A DNA stretch of 23,721 nt from a virus. Its lineage: Duplodnaviria > Heunggongvirae > Uroviricota > Caudoviricetes. Shown in pieces: positions 1,398 to 4,127 of the stretch; within the stretch, counting starts at the first letter, position 1; every line of letters starts with the position of its first letter. A program made the position numbers and the translations under genes. The stretch lies in the IMG/VR virus record IMGVR_UViG_2663762992_000003, positions 1 through 23,721 of that record. The stretch is one strand, 5' to 3'. The notes beneath the pieces are model-generated. The model ran no database searches. It was given only the letters and a program-made list of their open reading frames with translations, and was not told the origin of the DNA.

Positions 1398-1756
1398 ATA
1401 CCTACAGCATCACATTACCCTGGCCTCCGAGCAATAATCGCTATTACCGCCATAATCGCGGGCGCACGCACATCAGCGCAGAGGGGCAAGCATACCGCGA
1501 TAACGTCGCCCGAATCATCAAAGGCTCCATGCTGGATATCGGCCTGGCTATGCCAGTGAAAATCCGCATTGAGTGCCACATGCCGGATCGCCGTCGCCGT
1601 GACCTGGATAATCTGCAAAAAGCCGCTTTTGACGCACTTACTAAAGCAGGTTTCTGGCTGGATGATGCGCAGGTTGTTGATTACCGCGTTGTGAAGATGC
1701 CGATCGTTAAAGGCGGGAAGCTGGAGCTGACCATTACAGAACTGGAGGGCGAATGA
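1394..1756 (+). CDS. rusA: RusA Holliday junction resolvase
   Basis: 120 aa, GTG start overlapping the ybcO stop (GTGA); sequence [24 protein letters not shown]...[12 protein letters not shown] recognised as RusA. Confidence 0.93.
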
Positions 1757-1893
1757 CGTTTGAATCTTATATCACAGAACACCTCCGCCTTCGCTGGATG
1801 CGCCTGCGGTTGTACCGGTTTTCCGGTTCTGTCGTGACTGATTACCGAATACTGAAAAATTACGCCAAAACACTGAAAGGAGCGGCCGCATGA
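1753..1893 (+). CDS. ylcG: YlcG-like small protein (46 aa)
   Basis: ATG overlaps the rusA stop; its stop overlaps the next ATG (ATGA). Translation [46 protein letters not shown]. Synteny with DLP12 rusA-ylcG-Q. Confidence 0.5.
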
Positions 1894-2579
1894 ATACCCA
1901 ATATTTACAGTTTGTTCGCGAGCAGCTCATGGTGGCCACCGCCGATCTGAGTGGTGCGACGAAAGGGCAGTTGGTGGCCTGGCAGGAGCATGCGCAATTT
2001 GATACCGGTACATACAAACGAAAGAAACCGCGCATTCTGGATGAAGTGACCGGCAGGTTAATAACGCTGGATAATCCGCCGATACCCGGTAAGCAGTCAC
2101 GGGCGAAAGGCTCATCCATTGCCCTGGTCAGTCCGATCGAGTTCTCAACATCATCATGGCGCCGCGCGGTTCTGTCTCTCGAAGAACATCAGAAAGCGTG
2201 GTTGCTGTGGAGTTACAGCGAAAGTGTTCGCTGGGAACATCAGGTCACCATAACGCAGTGGGCATGGAGCGAGTTTAAGACTCTGTTGGGTACCAGGAAA
2301 ATTGCAGGTAAGACACTGGAACGTTTGAAGAAGTTGATCTGGCTGGCGGCACAGGATGTGAAGAACGAGCTGGCAGGGCGTAAGACCTATGAATACCAGG
2401 AGTTGGCATCACTGGTGGGAGTGACATCAAAAAACTGGTCTGAGACATTTACTGAACGCTGGGTTGCAATGAAGCACATTTTTCTACAGCTTGATAGCCA
2501 AGCTTTATTGCTTTTAACGAAAACACGTTCAAAACAAAAGACCACATTTTCACAGCAAGATATTGCAAAACTGGATTAA
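1890..2579 (+). CDS. Putative late-gene antiterminator (Q-slot protein, non-lambda family), 229 aa
   Basis: Sits between rusA/ylcG and the lysis cassette, immediately upstream of a promoter/terminator region. No cysteines, so not a lambda-Q zinc-finger type. Function assigned by synteny only. Confidence 0.5.
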   Translation: MNTQYLQFVREQLMVATADLSGATKGQLVAWQEHAQFDTGTYKRKKPRILDEVTGRLITLDNPPIPGKQSRAKGSSIALVSPIEFSTSSWRRAVLSLEEHQKAWLLWSYSESVRWEHQVTITQWAWSEFKTLLGTRKIAGKTLERLKKLIWLAAQDVKNELAGRKTYEYQELASLVGVTSKNWSETFTERWVAMKHIFLQLDSQALLLLTKTRSKQKTTFSQQDIAKLD

Positions 2580-2609
2580 AAATCATATATTTTATGTAAA
2601 TCTGATATT

Positions 2610-2638
2610 TTGCCAATGTTGTACGCACTGGCAGTAAT
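2610..2638 (+). promoter_or_regulatory. Candidate late promoter (pR'-like) with possible Q-utilisation site
   Basis: TTGCCA (2610-2615), 17-nt spacer, AGTAAT (2633-2638); located between the Q-slot gene and the holin. Confidence 0.3.
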
Positions 2639-2646
2639 CCAAATTC

Positions 2647-2683
2647 AAGCCCGAGGTTTAAAGCCTTGGGCTTTTCTGTTTCT
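2647..2683 (+). terminator. Hairpin plus U-rich tract (early terminator or pause structure of the late leader)
   Basis: 10-bp stem (2647-2656 / 2664-2673, one G-U pair), 7-nt loop, then TTCTGTTTCT. Confidence 0.35.
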
Positions 2684-2760: not shown

Positions 2761-2787
2761 GCCAGCTACATGCTGGCTTTTTTATTC
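2761..2787 (+). terminator. Intrinsic terminator, tR'-like
   Basis: GCCAGC-TACAT-GCTGGC hairpin followed by TTTTTTATT. Confidence 0.5.
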
Positions 2788-2888: not shown

Positions 2889-3206
2889 TTGGCTATTCAT
2901 ATGCACGAAAAAGAGAGCCTTGCCGGAGCGTTCTGGCTCGTTTTGCTGATCATCGCAGGTTGGGGCGGTCTGGTCCGCTACCTGATAGATGTGAAGCAGA
3001 GTAAAGCAACGTGGAGCTGGATAAATGCTTTGGCTCAGATAGTGGTGTCGGGATTCACCGGTGTTATTGGTGGCCTGAACAGTATCGAAAGTGGATTCAG
3101 TATTTACATGATTCTCGCGACAGCGGGGATTAGTGGTGCGATGGGTTCGGTTGCACTGACATACTTCTGGGAACGACTGACAGGGGTGAAAAATGCTAAA
3201 TCTTAA
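2889..3206 (+). CDS. Holin, predicted three transmembrane segments, non-lambda S type
   Basis: Three hydrophobic segments (AGAFWLVLLIIAGWGGLV, WINALAQIVVSGFTGVIGGL, FSIYMILATAGISGAMGSVAL) and a charged C-terminus; immediately upstream of and overlapping the endolysin gene. The track start at 2889 is TTG; the ATG at 2901 is an alternative start. Confidence 0.75.
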   Translation: MAIHMHEKESLAGAFWLVLLIIAGWGGLVRYLIDVKQSKATWSWINALAQIVVSGFTGVIGGLNSIESGFSIYMILATAGISGAMGSVALTYFWERLTGVKNAKS

Positions 3207-3669
3207 TCCTCAGCGTAAAGCTTTCCTCGATATGTTGGCGTGGTCAGAAGGAACGGATAACGGGCGACAGCCAACCCGCAATCACGGCTACGACGTTATT
3301 GTAGGTGGTGAGCTATTCACTGATTACTCCGATCATCCTCGCAAACTTGTCACGCTAAACCCAAAACTTAAATCAACGGCTGCTGGACGCTACCAGATTC
3401 TTTCCCGGTGGTGGGATGCTTACTGTAAACAGCTTGGTTTGAAAGACTTTTCCCCCAATAGCCAGGACGCAGTGGCATTGCAGCAGATTAAAGAGCGTGG
3501 CGCTTTACCGATGATTGATCGCGGTGATATTCGTCAGGCAATCGACCGTTGCAGCAATATCTGGGCTTCACTGCCGGGTGCTGGTTATGGTCAGTTCGAG
3601 CATAAGGTTGACAGTTTGATTGCAAAATTCAAAGAAGCAGGCGGAACGGTCAGAGAGATTGAGGTATGA
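3193..3669 (+). CDS. R: Endolysin R (lambda-type lytic transglycosylase)
   Basis: 158 aa; [20 protein letters not shown]...GGTVREIEV is near-identical to remembered lambda R. Confidence 0.95.
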
Positions 3670-4127
3670 GCAGATTAACCGCGATTATCTCCGCTCTGCT
3701 CATCTGCATCATCGTCTGCCTGTCATGGGCTGTTAATCATTACCGTGATAACGCCATTACCTACAAAGCCCAGCGCGACAAAAATGCCAGAGAACTGAAG
3801 CTGGCGAACGTGGCAATTACTGACATGCAGATGCGTCAGCGTGATGTTGCTGCGCTCGATGCAAAATACACGAAGGAGTTAGCTGATGCGAAAGCTGAAA
3901 ATGATGCTCTGCGTGATGATGTTGCCGCTGGTCGTCGTCGGTTGCACATCAAAGCAGTCTGTCAGTCAGTGCGTGAAGCCACCACCGCCTCCGGCGTGGA
4001 TAATGCAGCCTCCCCCCGACTGGCAGACACCGCTGAACGGGATTATTTCACCCTCAGAGAGAGGCTGATCACTATGCAAAAACAACTGGAAGGAACCCAG
4101 AAGTATATTAATGAGCAGTGCAGATAG
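3666..4127 (+). CDS. Rz: Rz inner-membrane spanin
   Basis: 153 aa with N-terminal transmembrane segment and coiled-coil region; matches lambda Rz. Confidence 0.95.
3886..4068 (+). CDS. Rz1: Rz1 outer-membrane lipoprotein spanin, embedded in Rz in the +1 frame
   Basis: 60 aa; lipobox LVVVGC and a proline-rich stretch ([15 protein letters not shown]); fully nested in Rz as in lambda. Confidence 0.9.

Follow-up and report, generated by a model that had tools for sequence, protein, structure and literature searches.

Three families of the late antiterminator Q, those of phages lambda, 21 and 82, are unrelated in sequence, and it has been pointed out for the Q82 family that a closed nozzle may not be used (PMC9388147). 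The 82 Q protein, for which antitermination has been documented in vitro (PMC4914094; PMC5001585), binds a Q-binding element (QBE) in the late promoter pR′ and contacts the β flap-tip helix with the help of NusA (PMC4914094), and it engages a σ70-dependent paused complex at +25 (PMC5001585). At 82 pR′ this pause is described by an extended −10-like element that is engaged at a transcript length of 21 nt, by GCC at +15 to +17, by an AT-rich stretch and by a terminal U at the pause position +25 (PMC5001585), and the interval that contains the QBE runs from −31 onward (PMC4914094).

The window analysed here, the whole 23,721-nucleotide stretch of DNA, is an E. coli lambdoid prophage, and the Q gene it carries shares with phage 82 its gene order, 94% of its product's residues including the C-terminal tail, and promoter-proximal elements that match the published descriptors of 82 pR′. 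The best explanation for this locus, which we consider very probable, is a phage 82-type late antiterminator Q whose AT-rich 3′ tail is the part of the open reading frame that overlaps the upstream half of pR′.

Family membership and predicted fold of the Q product

The Q gene (Table 1) is flanked on one side by the nin/rusA region and on the other by the lysis cassette, the position by which genes of the Q82 family are recognized, and the order ninB-ninE-ybcO-rusA-ylcG-Q is that of the phage 82 record X92588. The late-antiterminator slot to which the earlier note had assigned the gene was thus borne out, with nin/rusA genes upstream and genes for holin, endolysin and Rz downstream; in the PhiR47_2 record, genes for holin S, lysozyme R and Rz occupy the corresponding positions, and Bor is also encoded downstream of Q, after the lysis genes. 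The Q start codon overlaps the stop codon of the preceding ylcG-like ORF (1753-1893), and the phage 82 record annotates a ribosome-binding site at the place equivalent to the Shine-Dalgarno sequence found here.

In a Pfam profile search the product matched PF06323, the Q82 family, with 323.4 bits (E=9.6e-97; curated cutoff 25), amino acids 4-220 covering profile positions 1-217 of 220, and this was the sole Pfam match even at E≤10. Accordingly, neither the lambda Q family (PF03589), even at E≤10, nor the Q21 family (PF06530) gave a profile match. PHROG 304, ‘anti-termination protein Q-like’, matched with E=6e-108, no NCBIfam model was matched, and a PDB sequence search with the protein returned nothing at E≤1. 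An identical protein sequence is present in NCBI as ‘bacteriophage antitermination protein Q’ and occurs on 68 contigs. Alignment with phage 82 Q (CAA63332.1, record X92588.1) was gap-free over 229 aa with 94% amino acid identity, and DNA identity to phage 82 was 91% across rusA-ylcG-Q; the Q proteins of PhiR47_2 (XSB42890.1) and phage 434 (the Q82-like UMO75331.1) were 95% and 86% identical, respectively. The earlier note had drawn the antiterminator role from synteny alone, a view superseded by this full-length membership in PF06323 and by the near-identity to a characterized protein. On sequence grounds, the gene is identified by orthology to a biochemically studied protein and not by synteny, and it is a routine copy, almost identical to the well-studied Q of phage 82, and a known gene of a known kind. 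The antitermination activity of the present copy would, by the same orthology, be that of 82 Q.

The earlier description of the product as a cysteine-free, Trp-rich protein of 229 aa agreed with our counts of 0 Cys and 10 Trp (4.4%; binomial P of at least 10 Trp = 0.003 at a background of 1.5%). Lack of Cys is unremarkable in this DNA: of the window's 24 plus-strand ORFs with 100 aa or more, 8 have none. The relatives described below carry 8-12 Trp and 0-5 Cys with no Cys position conserved, and in a family alignment of 58 sequences W104, Y109 and W191 are among the residues with little or no variation. The cysteine-free, Trp-rich make-up is therefore a normal trait of the Q82 family and no sign of a new kind of antiterminator. 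That the product is not a zinc-finger protein of the lambda Q type, as had also been proposed, holds in view of the lack of Cys and of any PF03589 match, and an explanation for a Q82-type Q without a zinc finger is already in the literature. Lambda Q (PF03589; PDB 4mo1, 7ubn), which has a Cys4 zinc finger, shows no detectable sequence similarity to the present Q, and only the predicted core fold is similar. The Q82 family probably shares a helical core and a C-terminal helix-turn-helix (HTH) with lambda Q and AlpA and lacks the zinc-finger insertion of lambda Q, which would be the reason why the present protein is free of cysteine.

An AlphaFold2 model (mean pLDDT 87) was built on the 58-sequence alignment for this product, whose family, alone among the three Q families, lacks an experimental structure. 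The model was largely helical with a C-terminal HTH at aa 169-176/180 onward, and the tail appeared as the continuation of a single long helix, 180-225, which starts as the second helix of the HTH. The best structural matches in Foldseek were lambda Q (7ubn_Q) and AlpA of Pseudomonas aeruginosa (PDB 7xyb), with weak E-values (0.2), a resemblance that had been published before. AlpA is 13% identical to the present Q, is shorter and lacks the long C-terminal helix extension, and its host and target promoter differ. By analogy with AlpA and the C-terminal HTH of lambda Q (PMC9371919), the HTH may be the DNA-binding part that reads the QBE. Q21 (PF06530; PDB 6jnx, 6p18) is a functional analogue that occupies the same genome slot.

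Table 1. Features of the Q-pR′ region and the adjoining lysis genes, in window coordinates
Feature	Position	Strand	Basis or remarks
Shine-Dalgarno sequence AAGGAG	1877..1882	+	7 nt 5′ of the Q ATG; seen directly in the sequence
Q gene, phage 82 Q ortholog (Q82 family, PF06323)	1890..2579	+	229 aa, ATG start
Predicted helix-turn-helix, aa 169-176 and start of helix 180-225	2394..2474	+	AlphaFold2, pLDDT 96-98
AT-rich 3′ tail, aa 201-229, end of the long C-terminal helix	2490..2579	+	pR′ −109 to −20
Suppressed synonymous variation, last 19-21 codons	2517..2579	+	pR′ −81 to −20; codon alignment
Predicted pR′ −35 hexamer TTGCAA, within codons Ile225-Ala226-Lys227	2563..2568	+	promoter scan
Putative interval holding the Q-binding element (QBE)	2567..2605	+	presumed mapping onto the window
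Predicted pR′ −10 hexamer TATATT	2586..2591	+	promoter scan
Probable pR′ start (+1)	2598 (approx.)	+	sole register fitting the published 82 pR′ descriptors
Putative σ70-dependent pause element TGaTATTTT (+6 to +14) and GCC (+15 to +17)	2603..2614	+	comparison with PMC5001585
First predicted intrinsic terminator after pR′, 12-bp stem, T-rich tail	2647..2683	+	terminator scan
Second predicted intrinsic terminator, GCCAGC-loop-GCTGGC then TTTTTTATT	2761..2787	+	terminator scan
First late gene, holin (PF16083)	2889..3206	+	Pfam; PhiR47_2 annotation
Endolysin gene	3193..3669	+	3′ of holin
Rz gene	3666..4127	+	3′ of endolysin

The predicted late promoter and its leader RNA

A promoter scan revealed the sequence TTGCAA-17-TATATT, in which the mean share of the top base across the relatives was 0.93 for the −35 hexamer and 0.93 for the −10 hexamer. 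In lambda, pR′ lies 3′ of the Q stop codon and not inside the gene; here, as in phage 434 and PhiR47_2, the −35 hexamer is located inside the last Q codons. The sequence from +1 at 2598 reads AAATCTGATATTTTGCCAATGTTGT, and in this register TG falls at +6/+7, the −10-like TATTTT at +9 to +14 and GCC at +15 to +17, followed by an AT-rich stretch and a U at +25. Within the window this places TGaTATTTT at 2603-2611, the GCC discriminator at 2612-2614 and the putative pause site +25 at T2622, a position typical of the 82-type pause and distinct from that of lambda at +16/17. The segment GTAAATCTGATAT (−2 to +11) is nearly invariant among the relatives. The assignment of promoter and pause element thus appears to match the published 82 pR′, as compared by descriptors and not base by base; the phage 82 record X92588 stops at the Q stop codon. 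If the published QBE-containing interval is mapped onto the window, it would begin within the last four Q codons. Two other candidates were discarded. TTGCCA(2611)-17-AGTAAT, picked out by eye as pR′, would lie in the transcribed pause region under the published 82 pR′ descriptors, and the key bases of a promoter-like sequence on the minus strand, TTGGCA-16-TAAAAT (2616 to 2589, 10 of 12 matches), were by eye not kept in the relatives.

Downstream of the start, the region contains six terminator-like sites where 1.1 would be expected, among them the two intrinsic terminators given in Table 1. The Rfam model isrJ (RF01393) aligned end to end with 2595-2674 (model positions 1-75) at 30.4 bits (E=6e-4), short of the gathering score of 37, and the leader is therefore no scored member of that family, although it would work in the manner of an IsrJ-type terminated leader. 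This match ends at the first terminator hairpin and thereby delimits, independently, an RNA of ~80 nt from the start to the first terminator. As regards the leader, the Salmonella sRNA IsrJ (RF01393) shares the 5′ end (UGUAAAUCUGAUAU) and the position of the terminator, whereas the middle is of a different sequence class (TTTGCCAATGTTG against CGTCGCCATAGC). The leaders of the relatives split into several unrelated classes after +14. PhiR47_2 is 98.8% identical over 2560-2900, the whole leader included, whereas phage 434 diverges from +13 onward and differs in its own leader, terminator and downstream genes.

Published work on 82 Q, transferred to the present copy by orthology, suggests the following course of events. 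Q would be made from the early rightward transcript, would bind the QBE inside pR′ and engage the RNA polymerase held by σ70 at the +25 pause, contacting the β flap-tip helix. Together with NusA it would render the polymerase resistant to both terminators of Table 1, and the ensuing read-through would lead to transcription of the lysis and structural genes. In the absence of Q, pR′ would yield only the terminated RNA of ~80 nt.

The layout bears on construct design, for which the long C-terminal helix and the promoter overlap are both relevant. As the −35 hexamer lies inside the Q ORF, the reporter fragment 2580-2888 proposed in the earlier note would be promoterless, and it would also lack the upstream part of the Q-binding region. 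A reporter template must hence begin upstream of 2563 (at least at 2560 and ideally at about 2508, which is −90), since the −35 hexamer and part of the putative Q-binding region are inside the ORF.

Composition and conservation of the AT-rich 3′ end of Q

The last 30 codons had been noted previously as AT-rich, which proved correct: GC was 0.33 in 2490-2579 and 0.51 in 1890-2489, and 90-nt windows as AT-rich as this make up only 2.3% of all those in the sequence. The difference resides mostly in third codon positions, as GC3 was 0.23-0.24 (7/30) in the tail and 0.58 (117/200) upstream (binomial p=1.2e-4). GC1 (0.52 upstream, 0.45 in the tail) and GC2 (0.43 and 0.34) fell only slightly by comparison. 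The low GC extends past the Q stop codon into the intergenic region, to about 2650. A terminator-like hairpin inside the ORF at 2488-2504 is located where the AT-rich tail begins; it was dismissed as a chance match, RNAalifold on 19 relatives giving no consensus pairs.

Twenty-four loci were fetched from species-representative genomes, 22 of them with a full-length gene, and with phage 434 these gave 23 relatives of 61-75% amino acid identity from at least 10 enterobacterial genera, including Kluyvera, Citrobacter, Enterobacter, Atlantibacter, Phytobacter, Lelliottia, Leclercia, Siccibacter, Scandinavium, Pseudocitrobacter and Shigella. A tail of low GC3 was present in all 23 (0.20-0.40, against 0.48-0.74 in the gene body). 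Proteins of 198-207 aa with 100% identity over 83% of the query were considered as tail-less forms and were found instead to be N-terminally replaced or truncated.

The earlier note had suggested a recombination junction or a grafted C-terminus at ~2490, which would imply another, more AT-rich source for the graft. Such an origin would accord with the sharp shift in composition near 2490, with the variable length and content of wider-family sequences beyond the LD..AL motif (aa 201-207), to which homology reaches, and with the existence of mosaic Q proteins such as P0106, which changes partner at about aa 165. However, the tail is already present, nearly unchanged, in the Q proteins of phages 82, 434 and PhiR47_2, its low GC3 recurs in all 23 relatives from genera that differ in overall GC, and the pattern RS(Q/K)QK...IAK is retained even by P0106, which has a different HTH region. 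Moreover, 2160-2579 forms a single near-identical block with phage 82 DNA (9 mismatches in 420 nt), and the step in divergence lies at ~2155, most of all differences falling densely within 1680-2155. As mismatches are dense up to 2155 and nearly absent from 2160, the apparent mosaic junction against phage 82 is near 2155 (about aa 89) and not at 2490. Likewise, 12 of the 13 amino acid substitutions relative to 82 Q fall within the N-terminal 82 residues, and the N-terminal part of Q would be a different allele recombined in, with no functional difference evident relative to 82 Q. We therefore regard a graft of the C-terminus as highly improbable; the AT-rich end is a conserved trait of the family. 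A second explanation, that the AT-richness is a by-product of the amino acids of a basic helix rich in Lys, Thr, Gln and Ser and has no function at the DNA level, draws on the A/T-rich codons of these residues and on the slight fall of GC1 and GC2. It accounts poorly for the main drop at third positions, for a synonymous codon choice that is nearly fixed across genera, for the position of the −35 hexamer in codons 225-227 and for the conservation of the terminal DNA even where it is untranslated (see below), and it is rather improbable.

A further possibility is that the tail holds a CII-activated antisense promoter, resembling paQ, which damps Q during lysogenization and thereby constrains the DNA. 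In lambda, a CII-dependent antisense promoter lies inside Q, the window contains a perfect TTGC-N6-TTGC on the minus strand at 2568-2555, and in the phage 434 record the corresponding position is labelled both CII site and −35 of ‘paQ’. Nevertheless, this motif occurs in the window no more often than by chance (3 found, 4.8 expected), conservation of its upstream half-site is confined to the 82/434 group, one TTGC is merely the complement of the pR′ −35 hexamer, and by eye no convincing minus-strand −10 follows downstream, which makes this explanation improbable. The cII gene itself falls outside the window. Finally, the low diversity of the tail could be due to hitch-hiking, in that the pR′/qut module is exchanged as a unit and drags along ~80 bp of Q without selection. 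Mosaic boundaries do cluster here (the end of phage 434 homology at +13, the Gifsy-1 junction at −35 and the leader switch after +14), and counting sequences ignores shared ancestry; the conservation is nonetheless patchy, with a variable segment from −58 to −40 between conserved blocks, which is the pattern expected from site-specific constraint. Hitch-hiking as the whole explanation thus seems unlikely, if deserving of some weight, and the low synonymous variation could in part reflect recent exchange of the pR′ module and not selection.

Overlap of the Q 3′ end with pR′ and a candidate cis element

The reading that we favour, an overlap of the end of Q with the upstream half of pR′, accords with the variation at synonymous sites. 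When 22 sequences were aligned by codon, the entropy of synonymous codons amounted to 0.34 bits for the last 19 codons, ~3.4-fold lower than the 1.17 bits of the remaining ones (Mann-Whitney p=6e-9; such counts ignore shared ancestry), and the value was the lowest among 211 sliding windows. Amino acid conservation in these codons was no higher than average. The conserved DNA comprises the blocks CACGtTCACAACAAAAggC at −75 to −57, TTGCAaAA at −35 to −28 and TAtATTT at −12 to −6, and the variable segment between the first two corresponds to aa 218-224. The same DNA is encountered in different coding contexts: TTGCAAAACCGAAC encodes IAKPN in one relative (L024) and is non-coding, just 3′ of the stop codon, in Hafnia phage yong2, the Q of which is 35% identical to the present one. 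In two further relatives (L020 and L021) the stop codon comes three codons sooner while the rest of the DNA is unaltered, and the −35 DNA is non-coding both in yong2 and in Gifsy-1. Taken at the level of sequence, it is the DNA and not the peptide that is conserved at the very 3′ end of the ORF.

The reduced synonymous variation in the last 19 codons fits a dual use as coding sequence and promoter. Codons 225-227, which hold the −35 hexamer, and codons 210-224, which hold −81 to −36, would both serve two purposes, and the third positions would be A/T-rich and nearly invariant because the tail codons also serve pR′. A similar layout, with a −35 TTGAAA inside the last codons, was seen in phiES15 (50% identity), whereas the 3′ end of N15 Q (25% identity) by eye carries no comparable promoter, so that the overlap is not generalizable to the most distant members of the family.

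In Gifsy-1, the junction between an 82-type pR′ and the foreign anrP gene falls precisely at −35, and IsrJ sRNA, which was mapped to the Gifsy-1 locus, has been reported as a stable species (PMC4825925). The DNA from −81 to −36 is therefore apparently unneeded for basal promoter activity, and our best guess is that it may constitute an UP-like or curved upstream promoter element with phased A-tracts. Within it, CACGTTCAMAACAAAAG (−75 to −57, codons 212-217) has synonymous sites that are fixed across genera. We tentatively entertain, as a possibility that is less than even, that the last ~20 codons overprint the target promoter of the very protein they encode and that CACGTTCAMAACAAAAG is an undescribed cis element of pR′, which could serve as an upstream activator, UP-like or curved, or could bind Q or a host factor. 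If this is true, the DNA-reading C-terminal helix of Q would be physically locked to its binding site as one inheritable module. What is mildly new here is the quantified overlap of the Q 3′ end with pR′, the conserved block at −75 to −57 and the link that Rfam provides between IsrJ and the leaders of 82-type pR′; on the same supposition, the Salmonella sRNA IsrJ would be the terminated leader of an orphaned 82-type pR′.

IsrJ and the pR' leader

The short terminated leader transcribed from the late promoter pR' (window 2595-2674, plus strand) could be aligned end-to-end with the Rfam family isrJ (RF01393), a Salmonella 'island' sRNA. In Gifsy-1 (locus L028), the IsrJ locus (2502-2620) is itself an 82-type pR' (TTGCAAAACTGGATTAA...GTAAATCTGATATCGTCGCC), which starts immediately 3' of the anrP stop codon and retains the final 17 nt of a Q82-type ORF. 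IsrJ thus seems to be a leader whose 82-type late promoter has been orphaned, a statement that was not found in the literature surveyed.

Mosaic boundaries in Q and in the leader

Comparison of the pR' leaders of related prophages (L004-L025) revealed at least three unrelated sequence classes 3' of +14 (window 2612 onward), namely TTGTGCCATTGTTGTATGCACTGGCAG, CGTCGCCATAGCTT..GTCGAC and GCTGCC..., all preceded by the invariant stretch GTAAATCTGATAT. The leader of phage 434 switches likewise, at +13. The position immediately 3' of the pause element is a recurrent mosaic boundary.

Within Q, window 1680-2155 diverges by 10-25% from phage 82 and PhiR47_2 and near identity sets in abruptly from 2160 on, which marks a mosaic junction at ∼2155 (about residue 89), in the middle of Q, with the N-terminal segment on one side and the helical core and HTH on the other. 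As a separate observation, several E. coli genomes carry the same Q allele with the first ∼40 residues exchanged for an unrelated short N-terminus (database proteins P0030-P0033, 198-207 aa).

Motifs around pR' and possible holin starts

Minus-strand motifs around pR' and the conserved block upstream of its -35.
Feature	Window position	Strand	Remarks
TTGC-N6-TTGC	2568-2555	-	perfect lambda CII-site consensus; overlaps pR' -35
TTGGCA-16-TAAAAT	2616-2589	-	sigma70 promoter-like; strong consensus match, 10/12
CACGTTCAMAACAAAAG	2523-2541		pR' -75 to -57; codons 212-217; conserved across genera

The equivalent of the TTGC-N6-TTGC motif is annotated in the phage 434 record as a CII site together with 'paQ'; its conservation is limited to the 82/434 group, and the frequency of the motif in the window is not above chance. 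The promoter-like sequence faces pR' and is directed back into Q; in relatives belonging to other genera, its key bases are not conserved.

Conservation of the CACGTTCAMAACAAAAG block across genera extends to synonymous sites (CGT TCA CAA CAA AAG), and codon 211 of Q is fixed as CGA or AGA, both of them rare codons for Arg. In this block, no consensus of a known binding site could be recognised.

Translation of the holin ORF could begin either at TTG 2889 or at ATG 2901 (M-A-I-H-M; window 2889-2903), a layout resembling that of lambdoid S genes, with their dual starts for holin and antiholin.
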